The notes under the pieces: model-generated
Database searches by the model: none
The model's input: only the letters and a program-made list of their open reading frames with translations
Told to the model about the DNA's origin: nothing
Shown: one piece after another, positions 1 through 30,409 of the stretch
How the letters are laid out: every line of letters starts with the position of its first letter
Position numbering within the stretch: the first letter of the stretch is position 1
Assembly: GCF_988242995.1 (NCBI RefSeq)
Contig: NZ_OZ547043.1
Reading direction: 5' to 3' (one strand)
Length of the DNA: 64,000 bases
Position numbers and translations under genes: made by a program

Positions 1-32
1 TAAATGTGGTGATCATGGTTAGTCGTGCTCAA
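1..32 (-). CDS. gntK: gluconokinase, N-terminal fragment (gene continues off the window edge)
   Basis: Reverse complement of 1-32 reads TTG AGC ACG ACT AAC CAT GAT CAC CAC ATT = (M)STTNHDHHI, matching the remembered GntK N-terminus; lies downstream of gntR as in the gntR-gntK-gntU arrangement. Confidence 0.55.
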   Translation of the reverse strand, partial: MSTTNHDHHI

Positions 33-62
33 AGTGGTGCCCCCACAATACAAGAAATAAAA

Positions 63-92
63 ATGTTACGGGTAACTGTTATCGGTAACATT
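63..92 (-). promoter_or_regulatory. GntR operator-like palindromes in the gntK promoter region
   Basis: Two half-palindromes atgttacgggtaac / gttatcggtaacat seen directly between gntR stop and gntK start; resembles the ATGTTACCCGTAACAT-type GntR operator. Confidence 0.5.
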
Positions 93-170
93 GTCCGGCC
101 GGACAATATCAGAAGCAATATCCATCCGTGCCTTAAGTGTATAAGTGTGAGCTACTTCAAATTTGTGGGC

Positions 171-1166
171 TTAAATAGATCCGCCCGGTGACAAGGTGAA
201 ACCTAAATCTAACATTTTCGGTGTCACAGATTCGCCACGAATACGCGCCAGCAGGCGTTCAGCGCCAATACTGCCCATCCGCTCACGCGGCGTCAGTACG
301 CTCGCCAACCGTGGTTCCATCACCTGACCAATGTCATGACCATGGAAACCGGCAATCGCCATATCGTCAGGAACTTTCAACCCCAGACGCTGGCATTCAA
401 ACGCCGCGCCGACCGCCAGGTCATCATTAGTACAGAACACGCCATCCAGCTGCGGATATTCCCGCCTCGCCTGGCGAATCAGTTCAATACCGGAAGAGTA
501 AGAAGAAGATTGCTCAACCATCACGCTATACGGCACCAGGCCTGCATCCAGCATCGCCTGTTCGTATCCCTTCTGTTTGATGATAGTACGTTCGTCGAGA
601 CGTGCGCCGAGATAGGCAATGTGGCGATGCCCGCGAGCAATAATGGCGGTGGTCATCTGGCGTGCCGCTTCAAAGTTATCAAAACCGACGGCAATATCGA
701 GGCACGGCGACTTGCTGTCCATCAACTCCACCACCGGAATCCCCGCCACTTCAATCATCTTTAAGGTGCGTGGCGTGTGGGTACGTTCGGTGAGGATCAG
801 TCCATCGATATTCCATGAGAGCATTGATTCGAGGCGTTCTTGCTCCATTTCCGGTTTATAACCGTAGTGCGCCAGCATAGTTTGATAACCGTGCGCGTCG
901 GTGACGCTTTCGATTCCGCGTAATACTTCCGCGAAAACCTGGTTGGTGAGAGAAGGTAACAGGACGCCAATCGCCCGGCTGGTGGCATTAGAGAGGATAT
1001 CGGGCGCGCGATTGGGAATATAACCCAGTTCATCAAGAGCGGCGGCAATCTTGCCGCGTAGAGCGACGGAAACCTGCTCCGGGTTGCGTAAAAAACGGCT
1101 GACCGTCATTTTGGTCACGCCTACACGGTCAGCCACATCCTGAAGTACGGGTCTTTTCTTTTTCAT
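171..1166 (-). CDS. gntR: gluconate-responsive LacI-family transcriptional repressor
   Basis: 331 aa ORF; N-terminal LacI-type HTH (VTKMTVSRFL) and full-length match to remembered E. coli GntR; synteny with gntK. Confidence 0.93.
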   Translation of the reverse strand: MKKKRPVLQDVADRVGVTKMTVSRFLRNPEQVSVALRGKIAAALDELGYIPNRAPDILSNATSRAIGVLLPSLTNQVFAEVLRGIESVTDAHGYQTMLAHYGYKPEMEQERLESMLSWNIDGLILTERTHTPRTLKMIEVAGIPVVELMDSKSPCLDIAVGFDNFEAARQMTTAIIARGHRHIAYLGARLDERTIIKQKGYEQAMLDAGLVPYSVMVEQSSSYSSGIELIRQARREYPQLDGVFCTNDDLAVGAAFECQRLGLKVPDDMAIAGFHGHDIGQVMEPRLASVLTPRERMGSIGAERLLARIRGESVTPKMLDLGFTLSPGGSI

Positions 1167-1389: not shown

Positions 1390-2085
1390 TTAAACCGGCG
1401 GCAGATCGAACAGTAACACTTCGCTGTCGCTATCCGCATGAATGGAGATTGCCTGCTCATCCCAGATTGCCAGACCATCGCTGGTCGAGGCTTTCACGCC
1501 GTTAATGGTGACATTGCCTTTCACCACCTGAATCCAGACGCGGCGTTCAGCGGCAATCTGATGCACCGACTGCTCATCTTTTACCAGCGCCCAGCGGTAC
1601 AGTTCCATATCCTGATACACTTTCAGCGAACCATCACGCGCATCCGGCGAGAGCACCAGCTGTTTGCCCTGTACGGCATCGAAGCGACGCTGTTCATAAC
1701 GCGGCGTAATACCGTTTTCTTCAGGCATGATCCAGATTTGATACAGATGCAGACGCTCGGTGCTGCTTGGGTTGTACTCTGAGTGACGAATACCCGTACC
1801 CGCACTCATAATCTGGAACTCACCCGCCGGAACCTGCTCTTTATTGCCCATGCTGTCCTGATGCTCAACAGTACCTTCCAGCACGTAGGTCAAAATTTCC
1901 ATATCTTTATGCGGGTGAGTGCCGAAGCCCTGCCCTGCTTCAATCACGTCGTCGTTAATCACGCGCAGCGCGGAGAAGCCCATAAAGTTCGGATCGTAAT
2001 AGTTGGCAAAAGAGAAAGTATGCCAGGAGTCCAGCCAGCCATGATTTGCATGACCACGTTCATTTGCTTTGCGTAAGTAGATCAT
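1390..2085 (-). CDS. yhhW: pirin-like quercetin 2,3-dioxygenase
   Basis: 231 aa ORF with cupin/pirin His motifs (GFGTHPHKDMEI); matches remembered YhhW. Confidence 0.9.
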   Translation of the reverse strand: MIYLRKANERGHANHGWLDSWHTFSFANYYDPNFMGFSALRVINDDVIEAGQGFGTHPHKDMEILTYVLEGTVEHQDSMGNKEQVPAGEFQIMSAGTGIRHSEYNPSSTERLHLYQIWIMPEENGITPRYEQRRFDAVQGKQLVLSPDARDGSLKVYQDMELYRWALVKDEQSVHQIAAERRVWIQVVKGNVTINGVKASTSDGLAIWDEQAISIHADSDSEVLLFDLPPV

Positions 2086-2207
2086 TTTTATTCGCCCCCT
2101 GAATGATTTCGATGGGCTTAGTGTGGACCCGATCCGCCTGGGATGATAGAGGGTGAAAATTGACCCCTCTGTTCAAAAAAATTGAACTATTCGAGGGGCC
2201 ATAAAAC

Positions 2208-3245
2208 TTACTTCGCGAGAGTCACTGTGGAGGGAGAGGCTTGCTCAAATCCTCGTTCAAGGATTTCCAGATTGGTAAGAACTTCAGATTCCTTGACGTA
2301 ATTTGGCGCACCGTTGGTGATGGTTTGATACAACGCATCATAAACGCGCCCGTAATCGCCCATCTCCGGCTTCATCTCTTCTCTGACCGTCACACCCTCG
2401 TCATTGACATACTCCAGCACACCGACCGAATCATCCGCTGCGAATCCCGGTTCGCCCGGCATAATATTAGCCTTGAGGCTGGTTTCCTGCTGGTCGATAC
2501 CGTATTTAATAAACGAACCTTTCTTACCGTGAACGATAAATTTCGGATAATCGATTTTCACCAGATGGCTGGTTTTGACGATGGCTTTCAGGTCGCCATA
2601 AAACAGCTGCGCTTCAAAGGTGTCGTCAGGATTGGCTTTATTACGCAGGCTGCGGATGTCATAAGCGACGTGATCCGGGCGACCGAACAGAGAAATAATC
2701 TGGTCCATCGTATGCACACCAAGACCATAGAACGCGCCATCCTGCGGCAGCCCAGGTTTGGTTTCTGCCACCGGGCGGTAATAGTCAAAATGGCTTTCCA
2801 CTTCGACAATCTCTCCCAACTTGCCACTTTCAATCGCTTTTTTCGCTGTCAGGAAGCAGGAATCAAAACGACGATTCTGATACGGCGTGACGGTCAGTCC
2901 TTTGCTTTTCGCCAGCGCAAACAGCTCCTTCGCCTGGGCAAGCGTCGGGGTGAACGGTTTTTCGACCAGCACATTTTTCCCGGCTTCCAGCGCGCGCTTC
3001 GCGTACTCGAAGTGGCTGTCTGCATGGGTGCAGACCACAACCAGCTTAACATCGGGATCGTTTAGTACTTCGTCGAGATCGCTGGTGAAATGGATATGAG
3101 AGTAAATGGGGGCCTGTTCTTCCGGCTTCGCATGGCGGCGAAAAATATGCGCGACATGCCAGCTATCCTTGCGGTTAAGTACATACGGCAGATGGTAACG
3201 GGTGGTGCTTTTGCCGAAGCCAATAAAGGCGCAGTTGATGACCAT
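2208..3245 (-). CDS. yhhX: Gfo/Idh/MocA-family NAD(P)-dependent oxidoreductase
   Basis: 345 aa ORF, N-terminal Rossmann motif (IGFGKS), matches remembered YhhX. Confidence 0.9.
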   Translation of the reverse strand: MVINCAFIGFGKSTTRYHLPYVLNRKDSWHVAHIFRRHAKPEEQAPIYSHIHFTSDLDEVLNDPDVKLVVVCTHADSHFEYAKRALEAGKNVLVEKPFTPTLAQAKELFALAKSKGLTVTPYQNRRFDSCFLTAKKAIESGKLGEIVEVESHFDYYRPVAETKPGLPQDGAFYGLGVHTMDQIISLFGRPDHVAYDIRSLRNKANPDDTFEAQLFYGDLKAIVKTSHLVKIDYPKFIVHGKKGSFIKYGIDQQETSLKANIMPGEPGFAADDSVGVLEYVNDEGVTVREEMKPEMGDYGRVYDALYQTITNGAPNYVKESEVLTNLEILERGFEQASPSTVTLAK

Positions 3246-4303: not shown

Positions 4304-5482
4304 ATGAGTAATATTGTTTACCTGACAGTAACGGGAGAACAACAAGGAAGCATCTCCGCAGGTTGTGGGACTTCTGAGTCTACAGGTAATCGCTGGCAGA
4401 GCGGGCATGAGGATGAAATATTTACATTCTCATTCTTAAATAGTATTACTAATACGGGGCTTGGTTCACAGTTCCATGGTATAACATTTTGTAAATTAAT
4501 TGATAAAAGCACTCCATTATTTATTAATTCCATTAACAATAATGAACAATTATTTATGGAATTTGACTTCTATCGAATAAATAGATTTGGTAGATGGGAA
4601 AAGTATTATTATATACAACTAAGAGGCGCTTTTTTATCGGCTATTCATCATCAGATCATTGAAAATCAACTGGATACAGAAACATTAACTGTTAGTTATG
4701 AATTTATCCTCTGTCAACATCTTATCGCAAATACCGAGTTCAGCTATTTGGCACTCCCTGAAAATTATAACTGTTTGTTTTTACCAAATTCAAAAAACCA
4801 AACAAATAATCGTTTCAAAACGTTAAACAGCAAAGCTATTGGCAGGCTACTTGCTGCTGGTGGCGTATACAATGGGAACATTGAAGGATTCAGAGATACT
4901 GCGGAAAAACTGGGTGGAGATGCAATAAAAGGCTATGATCAAATACTAAATGAAAAAACAGCGGGCATAGCGATAGCAACAGCATCTATTCTTTTAACAA
5001 AGCGTTCTAATGTTGATACATATACAGAAATAAATAGTTACTTAGGCAAACTTAGAGGTCAACAAAAACTTCTTGATGGTATAGACATAATAGAAACAAT
5101 ATACATTAAGAGACCTTCAAAAGACTTAGCTAACTTACGAAAGGAGTTTAATAAAACTGTAAGAAAAAATTTTCTTATCAAACTTGCAAAAACCTCCGAA
5201 GCATCTGAAAGATTCAACGCCGAAGACCTTTTAAGAATGAGAAAGGGCAATGTTCCTCTAAATTATAATGTTCACCATAAACTATCTCTAGATGATGGTG
5301 GTACTAATGATTTCGAAAATTTAGTATTAATCGAAAACGAACCATATCATAAAGTTTTTACTAACATGCAATCACGAATAGCTAAGGGAGTATTAGTAGG
5401 TGAAAGCAAAATCACTCCCTGGGCCATTCCATCTGGCTCAATTTATCCTCCCATGAAAAATATTATGGAACCCACAAAATGA
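4304..5482 (+). CDS. yhhZ: Hcp-like protein fused to a C-terminal HNH/colicin-DNase-type nuclease domain (polymorphic toxin)
   Basis: 392 aa; N-terminal Hcp-like segments (FTF, IDKSTP, FYR); C-terminal HNH motif VHHKLSLDDGGTNDFENLVLIENEPYHKVF resembling colicin E9 DNase; AT-rich. Confidence 0.85.
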   Translation: MSNIVYLTVTGEQQGSISAGCGTSESTGNRWQSGHEDEIFTFSFLNSITNTGLGSQFHGITFCKLIDKSTPLFINSINNNEQLFMEFDFYRINRFGRWEKYYYIQLRGAFLSAIHHQIIENQLDTETLTVSYEFILCQHLIANTEFSYLALPENYNCLFLPNSKNQTNNRFKTLNSKAIGRLLAAGGVYNGNIEGFRDTAEKLGGDAIKGYDQILNEKTAGIAIATASILLTKRSNVDTYTEINSYLGKLRGQQKLLDGIDIIETIYIKRPSKDLANLRKEFNKTVRKNFLIKLAKTSEASERFNAEDLLRMRKGNVPLNYNVHHKLSLDDGGTNDFENLVLIENEPYHKVFTNMQSRIAKGVLVGESKITPWAIPSGSIYPPMKNIMEPTK

Positions 5483-28142: not shown

Positions 28143-28177
28143 CTTGACTCTGGAGTCGACTCCAGAGTGTATCCTTC
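28143..28177 (+). promoter_or_regulatory. zntA promoter with ZntR (MerR-type) operator
   Basis: TTGACT -35, 20-bp spacer containing perfect palindrome actctggagtcgactccagagt, then TATCCT -10; classic MerR-family long-spacer promoter. Confidence 0.8.
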
Positions 28178-28210
28178 GGTTAATGAGAAAAAACTTAACC
28201 GGAGGATGCC

Positions 28211-30409
28211 ATGTCGACTCCTGACAATCACGGCAAGAAAGCCCCTCAATTTGCTGCGTTCAAACCGCTAACCACGGTACAGAACGCCAACGACTGTTGC
28301 TGCGACGGCGCATGTTCCAGCACGCCAACGCTCTCTGAAAACGTCTCCGGCACCCGCTATAGCTGGAAAGTCAGCGGCATGGACTGCGCCGCCTGTGCGC
28401 GCAAGGTAGAAAATGCCGTGCGCCAGCTTGCAGGCGTGAATCAGGTGCAGGTGTTGTTCGCCACCGAAAAACTGGTGGTCGATGCCGACAATGACATCCG
28501 TGCCCAGGTTGAATCTGCGGTGCAAAAAGCGGGCTATTCCCTGCGCGATGAACAGGCCGCCGACGAACCGCAAACATCACGCCTGAAAGAGAATTTGCCG
28601 CTGATTACGCTAATCGTGATGATGGCAATCAGCTGGGGTCTGGAGCAGTTTAATCATCCGTTCGGGCAACTGGCGTTTATCGCGACCACGCTGGTTGGGC
28701 TGTACCCGATTGCTCGTCAGGCATTACGGCTGATCAAATCCGGCAGCTACTTCGCCATTGAAACGTTAATGAGCGTAGCCGCTATTGGTGCGCTGTTTAT
28801 TGGCGCAACGGCTGAAGCTGCGATGGTGTTGCTACTGTTTTTGATTGGTGAACGACTGGAAGGCTGGGCCGCCAGCCGCGCGCGTCAGGGCGTTAGCGCG
28901 TTAATGGCGCTGAAACCAGAAACCGCCACGCGCCTGCGTAACGGTGAGCGGGAAGAGGTGGCGATTAACAGCCTGCGCCCTGGCGATGTGATTGAAGTCG
29001 CCGCAGGTGGACGTTTGCCTGCCGACGGTAAACTGCTCTCACCGTTTGCCAGTTTTGATGAAAGCGCCCTGACCGGCGAATCCATTCCGGTGGAGCGCGC
29101 AACGGGCGATAAAGTCCCTGCTGGTGCCACCAGCGTAGACCGTCTGGTAACGCTGGAAGTGCTGTCAGAACCGGGTGCCAGCGCCATTGACCGGATTCTG
29201 AAACTGATCGAAGAAGCCGAAGAGCGTCGCGCACCCATTGAGCGGTTTATCGACCGTTTCAGCCGTATCTATACGCCCGCGATTATGGCCGTCGCTCTGC
29301 TGGTGACGCTGGTGCCACCGCTGCTGTTTGCCGCCAGCTGGCAGGAGTGGATTTATAAAGGCCTGACGCTGCTGCTGATTGGCTGCCCGTGCGCGTTAGT
29401 TATCTCCACGCCCGCGGCGATTACCTCCGGGCTGGCAGCAGCAGCGCGTCGTGGGGCGTTAATTAAAGGCGGAGCGGCGCTGGAACAACTGGGTCGTGTT
29501 ACCCAGGTGGCGTTTGATAAAACCGGTACGCTGACCGTCGGTAAACCGCGCGTTACCGCGATTCATCCGGCAACGGGTATTAGTGAATCTGAACTGCTGA
29601 CACTGGCAGCGGCGGTCGAGCAAGGCGCGACGCATCCACTGGCGCAAGCCATCGTACGCGAAGCACAGGTTGCTGAACTCGCTATTCCCACCGCCGAATC
29701 ACAGCGGGCGCTGGTCGGGTCTGGCATTGAAGCGCAGGTTAACGGTGAGCGCGTATTGATTTGCGCTGCAGGGAAACATCCCGCTGATGCATTTGCTGGT
29801 TTGATTAATGAACTGGAAAGCGCCGGGCAAACAGTAGTGCTGGTAGTACGTAACGATGACGTGCTGGGTATCATTGCATTGCAGGATACTCTGCGTGCCG
29901 ATGCTGCAACTGCCATCAGTGAACTGAACGCGCTGGGAGTTAAAGGAGTGATCCTCACCGGCGATAATCCACGCGCAGCGGCGGCAATCGCCGGGGAACT
30001 GGGGCTGGAGTTTAAAGCGGGCCTGTTGCCGGAAGATAAAGTCAAAGCAGTGACCGAGCTGAATCAACATGCGCCGCTGGCGATGGTCGGTGACGGTATT
30101 AACGACGCGCCAGCGATGAAAGCCGCCGCCATCGGGATTGCAATGGGCAGTGGCACAGACGTGGCGCTGGAAACCGCCGATGCAGCATTAACCCATAACC
30201 ACCTGCGCGGCCTGGTGCAAATGATTGAACTGGCACGCGCCACTCACGCCAATATCCGCCAGAACATCACTATTGCGCTGGGGCTGAAGGGCGTTTTCCT
30301 CGTCACGACGCTGTTAGGGATGACCGGACTGTGGCTGGCAGTGCTGGCAGATACCGGTGCGACGGTGCTGGTGACGGCGAATGCGTTAAGGCTGTTGCGC
30401 AGGAAATAA
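28211..30409 (+). CDS. zntA: Zn/Cd/Pb-exporting P1B-type ATPase
   Basis: 732 aa; N-terminal metal-binding GMDCAACARK, CPC motif (IGCPCALVIS), phosphorylation motif DKTGTLT, hinge GDGINDAPA. Confidence 0.97.
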   Translation: MSTPDNHGKKAPQFAAFKPLTTVQNANDCCCDGACSSTPTLSENVSGTRYSWKVSGMDCAACARKVENAVRQLAGVNQVQVLFATEKLVVDADNDIRAQVESAVQKAGYSLRDEQAADEPQTSRLKENLPLITLIVMMAISWGLEQFNHPFGQLAFIATTLVGLYPIARQALRLIKSGSYFAIETLMSVAAIGALFIGATAEAAMVLLLFLIGERLEGWAASRARQGVSALMALKPETATRLRNGEREEVAINSLRPGDVIEVAAGGRLPADGKLLSPFASFDESALTGESIPVERATGDKVPAGATSVDRLVTLEVLSEPGASAIDRILKLIEEAEERRAPIERFIDRFSRIYTPAIMAVALLVTLVPPLLFAASWQEWIYKGLTLLLIGCPCALVISTPAAITSGLAAAARRGALIKGGAALEQLGRVTQVAFDKTGTLTVGKPRVTAIHPATGISESELLTLAAAVEQGATHPLAQAIVREAQVAELAIPTAESQRALVGSGIEAQVNGERVLICAAGKHPADAFAGLINELESAGQTVVLVVRNDDVLGIIALQDTLRADAATAISELNALGVKGVILTGDNPRAAAAIAGELGLEFKAGLLPEDKVKAVTELNQHAPLAMVGDGINDAPAMKAAAIGIAMGSGTDVALETADAALTHNHLRGLVQMIELARATHANIRQNITIALGLKGVFLVTTLLGMTGLWLAVLADTGATVLVTANALRLLRRK

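Follow-up and report, generated by a model that had tools for sequence, protein, structure and literature searches.

The minus strand of positions 1-170 of our window, that is, of the whole stretch of 64,000 nucleotides that was analysed, is very probably the promoter, operator and translation-initiation region of gntKU, part of the GntI gluconate system of Escherichia coli. The two genes encode the kinase and the low-affinity transporter of this system. Judged from sequence and conservation, gntK is translated from a UUG codon at window 32..30 which is served by a GGGGG Shine-Dalgarno sequence, and two overlapping palindromes upstream of it are GntR operators whose layout is almost invariant across the Enterobacteriaceae. 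The control region is that of E. coli gntRKU and not that of a relative. Its biology is ordinary and has already been described, and the significance of the finding reaches little beyond annotation quality. We note that a start other than ATG and a pair of repressor operators could both be recognised here from the sequence alone and without tools.

Identity of the locus

The gap between gntR and gntK measures 138 bp (window 33-170). The features of this region are collected in Table 1.

Table 1. Features of the gntR-gntK region in window coordinates; promoter elements and regulator binding sites are predictions
Feature	Position	Strand	Remark
gntK CDS, 5' end (gluconokinase)	1..32	-	TTG at 32..30; leaves the window at its left edge
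Shine-Dalgarno sequence GGGGG	40..44	-	7 nt 5' of the gntK TTG
Upstream in-frame TTG	51..53	-	7 codons 5' of the annotated start; rejected as start
GntR operator 2, promoter-distal, CAGTTACCCGTAACAT	78..63	-	two mismatches to ATGTTA-N4-TAACAT
GntR operator 1, promoter-proximal, ATGTTACCGATAACAG	91..76	-	one mismatch to ATGTTA-N4-TAACAT
Putative -10 hexamer GACAAT	90..95	-	fixed position in 102 of the 121 loci listed
Putative -35 hexamer TTGCTT	113..118	-	same position in 105 of the 121 loci listed
CRP-like site TTTGA-AGTAGC-TCACA	146..161	-	one mismatch to TGTGA-N6-TCACA; centre 153.5
gntR, LacI-family gluconate repressor	1166..171	-	ORF of 331 aa, stop codon 173..171, RefSeq annotation

The product of gntR matches the NCBIfam equivalog profile NF011563 for GntR with 776 bits at a cut-off of 433. 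On the other side of the gap only 10 codons and 2 nt of gntK lie inside the window. The minus strand from 32 to 1 reads TTG AGC ACG ACT AAC CAT GAT CAC CAC ATT TA, which translates as (M/L)STTNHDHHI. The original prediction was silent on the strand; gntK is a minus-strand gene and is truncated by the edge of the window. The full-length GntK was taken from E. coli strain 118UI (locus L001), which is identical to the window over positions 1-1200. This protein of 175 aa is identical from residue 1 to the E. coli gluconate kinase of PDB entry 1KNQ and is also identical to five further PDB entries; since the PDB construct follows the annotation, the agreement at residue 1 is not independent of it. 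Residues 1-174 align to model positions 1-174 of the NCBIfam gluconokinase equivalog NF008583.

Positions 1-1200 of the window show 100% identity to many complete E. coli genomes. The gntRKU locus of K-12 MG1655 is the same locus, and the gap plus start region differs from it at 3 of 175 positions, each by a single base. These SNPs leave the operators, the Shine-Dalgarno sequence and the start codon untouched; the TTG, the operator sequences and the 13-bp offset between the operators are identical. One of the SNPs abolishes an in-frame TAA far upstream of the gntK start. As far as the two sequences tell, the differences are strain-level SNPs only and no functional difference is indicated.

Farther into the window the identity to strain 118UI ends; it covers approximately the first 2.2 kb only, and beyond that the two sequences are not collinear. 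Segments of 14-25 kb of the window find their best match at 98.3-98.9% among 5,426 complete RefSeq E. coli genomes. Positions 25001-50000 comprise zntA to rbbA. Because the window spans zntA to rbbA, it lacks the fatty-acid/polyketide-like cluster of about 15 kb that 118UI has between yhhT and acpT. At window 28145-28185 we observed a perfect palindrome, CTGGAGTCGACTCCAG, between TTGACT and TATCCT. This arrangement lies just 5' of the zntA ORF of 732 aa which starts at 28211, and we take the CTGGAGTCGACTCCAG element to be the known operator of ZntR, a MerR-type regulator, within a long promoter spacer.

The overlapping palindromes upstream of gntK

The GntR operator consensus ATGTTA-N4-TAACAT reportedly goes back to the work of Peekhaus and Conway in 1998. 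The consensus finds support here because perfect versions of it, ATGTTACCGATAACAT and ATGTTACCGGTAACAT, occur in orthologous loci. When the plus strand is read, window 63-78 is ATGTTACGGGTAACTG with two mismatches to this consensus and window 76-91 is CTGTTATCGGTAACAT with one. The original prediction had claimed two overlapping palindromes resembling GntR operators in the gntR-gntK gap, and this is what is found. Their centres at 70.5 and 83.5 are 13 bp apart and the two sites share 3 bp. Operator 1 has the structure ATGTTAC-CG-ATAACAG with CG at the centre, operator 2 the structure CAGTTAC-CC-GTAACAT with CC at the centre, and the pair sits 31-59 nt 5' of the gntK TTG.

Orthologous loci were collected with a degenerate DNA pattern that covers codons 11-22 of gntK only (YVLMGVSGSGKS) and was run against a single genome of each species. 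The start codon, residues 1-9 and the upstream region are left unconstrained by this pattern. At least 120 species loci (L003-L122), almost all from Enterobacteriaceae, were obtained; together with the E. coli references L001 and L002 they make up the 122 loci used here. Operator 1 is present in 121 of the 122 loci listed, and the exception offers only 68 nt of upstream sequence. The core of operator 2, GTTACCCGTAAC, follows operator 1 in 117 of these 121 loci, with an offset of +13 bp in 113 and of +14 bp in 4. An alignment of 20 genera shows almost no variation in the block GACAATGTTACCGATAAC-nGTTACCCGTAACA, whereas the sequence next to it drifts.

That the palindromes are operators of GntR, as originally proposed, is borne out by the adjacent gntR gene, by the occurrence of the pair in 117 of the 121 loci listed and by a statement in the literature: overlapping GntR sites about 13 bp apart 5' of E. 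coli gntKU are functional according to Tsunedomi 2003a as cited in PMC4052901. The summary which the same paper gives of Izu et al. 1997 (J Mol Biol 267:778) and Tsunedomi et al. 2003 (J Bacteriol 185:1783) likewise describes a gntKU promoter-operator with two GntR-binding elements.

Four loci (L009, L034, L040 and L082) carry a single perfect operator, either ATGTTACCGATAACAT or ATGTTACCGGTAACAT, and the second site is absent. The proteins of L009, L034 and L082 begin with MN[I/V]TNHDNH and that of L040 begins with MTTTLNH. These four loci may represent a different gluconokinase copy or operon. The double-operator layout was also seen outside the Enterobacteriaceae, in the two Chitinilyticum loci L019 and L117, where the offset is 14 bp and the start codon is ATG.

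The 31-bp stretch at window 62-92 could also be regarded as one composite element, within which there is a single true operator, or which is read as a whole by a higher-order GntR oligomer or by the paralogue GntH or IdnR. The stretch is itself a near-palindrome: two inverted arms of 15 nt each (62-76 and 78-92) make up a composite repeat in which 26 of 31 positions are self-complementary. Further, the four loci just described manage on one perfect operator, and GntH also controls GntR-regulated genes, if we go by the title of Tsunedomi 2003a. The binding mode is puzzling as well: in the known structures of the LacI family, dimers at a distance of 13 bp are unable to interact (PMC4052901). We nevertheless consider a composite element improbable. 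In 113 of the loci listed the two half-elements show equally strict conservation and a constant offset of 13 bp, and the works cited in PMC4052901 regard them, as reported there, as two functional GntR sites. Moreover the question raised is one of the binding mode and leaves the identity of the element unchanged. We therefore keep to two overlapping GntR operators.

The start codon of gntK

The original prediction had gntK begin with TTG rather than ATG. The RefSeq CDS of strain 118UI (2005..2532, minus strand) starts at this TTG, its first base being window position 32, and gene b3437 of K-12 MG1655 (NP_417894.2; 3577065..3577592, minus strand) begins at the same TTG. A comparison with the reference annotation yielded no differing start or frame in either strain. 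A Shine-Dalgarno sequence is found at a proper distance: the duplex of GGGGG with the anti-Shine-Dalgarno sequence ACCUCCUUA at the 3' end of 16S rRNA has a predicted energy of -8.4 kcal/mol. Random 20-mers from the window give a mean of -2.15 kcal/mol, and about 2.6% of them reach -7 kcal/mol.

At the position aligned to the E. coli TTG, 87 of the 122 loci listed have TTG and the other 35 have ATG; nothing else occurs. Among the matches listed, TTG is found in Escherichia, Salmonella, Citrobacter, Enterobacter, Klebsiella, Raoultella, Kluyvera, Kosakonia, Leclercia, Lelliottia and relatives, and ATG in Buttiauxella, Cedecea, Mangrovibacter, Atlantibacter, Yokenella, Trabulsiella and Chitinilyticum. 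The genera with ATG are more distant ones, outside the group of Escherichia, Salmonella, Citrobacter, Klebsiella and Enterobacter. In 103 distinct sequences among the matches listed, the most frequent residue of codons -15 to -1 reaches a frequency of 0.17-0.58 and stops are frequent, whereas residues +1 to +8 (STTNHDHH) reach 0.86-0.98 with several synonymous codons each; at residue +9, a V/I position, the value is 0.59. Because conservation steps up sharply at the TTG, translation would begin at this codon. The occurrence of ATG in other genera and the conservation step together lend modest independent support to the annotated TTG.

A start elsewhere is very improbable in our view. The open frame does continue upstream through a second TTG (53..51), with FYFLYCGGTT preceding the annotated TTG, and translation from there would give a longer protein; a start at Met14, the first in-frame ATG, would give a shorter one. 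The annotated TTG would then be an internal leucine or a mere convention of annotation, and the K-12 protein record stands at version.2, which means that the sequence was changed at least once. Neither candidate, however, is accompanied by a Shine-Dalgarno sequence (+0.6 kcal/mol for TTG 53..51 and +1.2 kcal/mol for Met14). In the longer protein the Shine-Dalgarno sequence of the annotated TTG would fall inside the extended open reading frame, and among the loci listed neither the upstream TTG nor the residues that follow it are conserved, the frame being interrupted by stops in many species. As for Met14, residues 1-8 which precede it are 86-98% conserved in the loci listed although they lie outside the search pattern. 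Residues 1-9 are conserved with synonymous codons and are therefore translated, which excludes Met14. Also the 35 loci with ATG at the aligned codon, among those listed, speak against a start elsewhere. We therefore retain the annotated UUG as the start of gntK.

In the representative genera that were aligned, a purine-rich block (GGGGG, GGGAG or GGAGG) stands at the Shine-Dalgarno position. None of the 122 loci listed has a predicted duplex weaker than -5.6 kcal/mol, and across the 87 loci with TTG the range is -5.6 to -11.8 kcal/mol. The mean among the loci listed is -8.1 kcal/mol for TTG (n = 87) versus -5.9 kcal/mol for ATG (n = 35). The stronger Shine-Dalgarno sequence at TTG loci may be a compensation for the weaker start codon, though the comparison is confounded by phylogeny and shared ancestry.

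A literature search on the start codon of gntK brought up unrelated papers only, and gntK is not mentioned in the supplements of PMC3415461, which contain genome-wide start-site data. UUG initiates about 3% of the E. coli genes, and in reporter assays the group of AUG, GUG and UUG initiates at 10-100% of the AUG level (bioRxiv 10.1101/063800). The UUG of gntK would then support initiation somewhat below the level of AUG. Its use is a normal minority choice of start codon.

Proposed regulation and comparison with known systems

A scan of the gap for consensus promoters on the gntK strand did not detect a promoter, and TTGCTT and GACAAT match the consensus at 7 of 12 positions. From conservation and geometry we infer nevertheless an activator-dependent promoter TTGCTT-17-GACAAT with a CRP-like site and a transcription start near window 83. 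The spacing of 17 bp between the hexamers is fixed in the loci listed and the sequence of the spacer varies. The motif ATTGC, which is located at the -35 block, is invariant in the alignment of 20 genera. Outside the operators no block of the gap is better conserved in the same alignment than the CRP-like site, and in 98 of the 106 listed loci in which this site was found it keeps a constant distance to the -10 hexamer. The last two bases of GACAAT are the first two of operator 1, and the conservation of GACAAT could reflect the overlapping operator instead of a -10 element. With a start predicted at window 83 or 82, the CRP-like site would be centred at -70.5 or -71.5.

A perfect 16-bp palindrome, TTGTCCGGCCGGACAA, occupies window 91-106 within the putative promoter spacer and abuts operator 1. 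We rejected it as an additional regulatory site. The spacer around it is variable, one of the three SNPs gives it a mismatch in K-12, and it is conserved only in Escherichia and C. koseri. By chance one would expect about one perfect 16-bp palindrome in 64 kb; the window contains three, so that this one is probably due to chance. Another, GCCCGCATATGCGGGC, is found at window 62053-62068.

We suggest that gntKU expression could be controlled in the following steps. A weak sigma-70 promoter, TTGCTT-17-GACAAT, would direct transcription from near window 83 or 82, which would leave gntK with a 5'-UTR of about 51 nt. cAMP-CRP bound at about -70.5 or -71.5, a class I geometry, could help this promoter. 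Without gluconate, GntR supplied by the adjacent constitutive gntR gene would occupy both operators. Operator 1 would extend from about -8 to +8 and operator 2 from about +6 to +21, and the pair would cover approximately -8 to +21. GntR on the operators could in this way block the binding of RNA polymerase or promoter escape. Gluconate would then bind to GntR, which would be released, and the block would be relieved. GntR is cited for negative control of the E. coli gluconate genes, and gluconate for inhibition of GntR binding to the gntT promoter, in PMC2230225.

The leader RNA expected from this promoter folds less well than its shuffles (z = +1.62; 196 of 200 shuffles fold equally well or better), and this weak folding argues against a role as RNA hairpin and fits an accessible initiation region. 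In the 64-kb window there are three matches to ATGTTA-N4-TAACAT with at most two mismatches, and about 2.2 single matches are expected by chance. The third match, AAGTTTTTACTAACAT at window 5352-5367, has two mismatches, is at chance level and has no gluconate gene nearby. Although such single matches arise by chance about twice per 64 kb, it is hardly conceivable that the palindromes upstream of gntK are chance matches too, or an RNA hairpin (a terminator of gntR or a structured 5'-UTR): only 2 of 400 first-order Markov simulations of the window contained two sites within 30 bp of each other, the operator sequence hardly varies from genus to genus whereas the spacer beside it drifts, a terminator scan of the gap on the gntK strand found no terminator-like site, and the leader folds worse than its shuffles.

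The two features of the region can be compared with what is known from other systems. Like other UUG-initiated E. coli genes, gntK has a good Shine-Dalgarno sequence at canonical spacing, and the initiator would be decoded as fMet. What is mildly notable for gntK is that the TTG has been kept across the group of Escherichia, Salmonella, Citrobacter, Klebsiella and Enterobacter. The 13-bp overlapping layout of the operators, for its part, is essentially fixed across the Enterobacteriaceae. Each of the two observations allows a further reading, namely that the UUG of gntK is under selection and offset by the Shine-Dalgarno sequence, so that the translation rate would be tuned, and that the 13-bp pair may need a mode of GntR-DNA binding which has not been seen so far. 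We put these two points forward tentatively and regard them as rather unlikely. If they were true, the weak UUG and the stronger Shine-Dalgarno sequence in the core Enterobacteriaceae would reflect a tuned translation rate rather than drift, and GntR on the 13-bp pair would bind unlike any solved complex of the LacI family, a problem that PMC4052901 has already raised.

The gntK pair can further be set beside the tandem and overlapping operators of the LacI family. Ravcheev et al. 2014 (PMC4052901) report that the inter-site distances in this family peak at 13 bp, and the spacing of the gntK pair falls within this peak. The 13-bp arrangement is conserved for more than half of the GntR-regulated operons in gamma-proteobacteria (PMC4052901). 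Alike are also the even palindromes of 16 bp, the central CG of operator 1 and the position of the pair at 31-59 nt from the start, which is inside the usual zone of 30-140 nt. Operator 2 differs in that its centre is CC instead of the typical CG. Within the family as a whole the 13-bp overlap is a minority mode, and helical phasing is seen at 21-22 bp and 32 bp (PMC4052901). The overlap at 13 bp falls within the zone of specific contacts, a geometry which is hard to reconcile with the known structures (PMC4052901).
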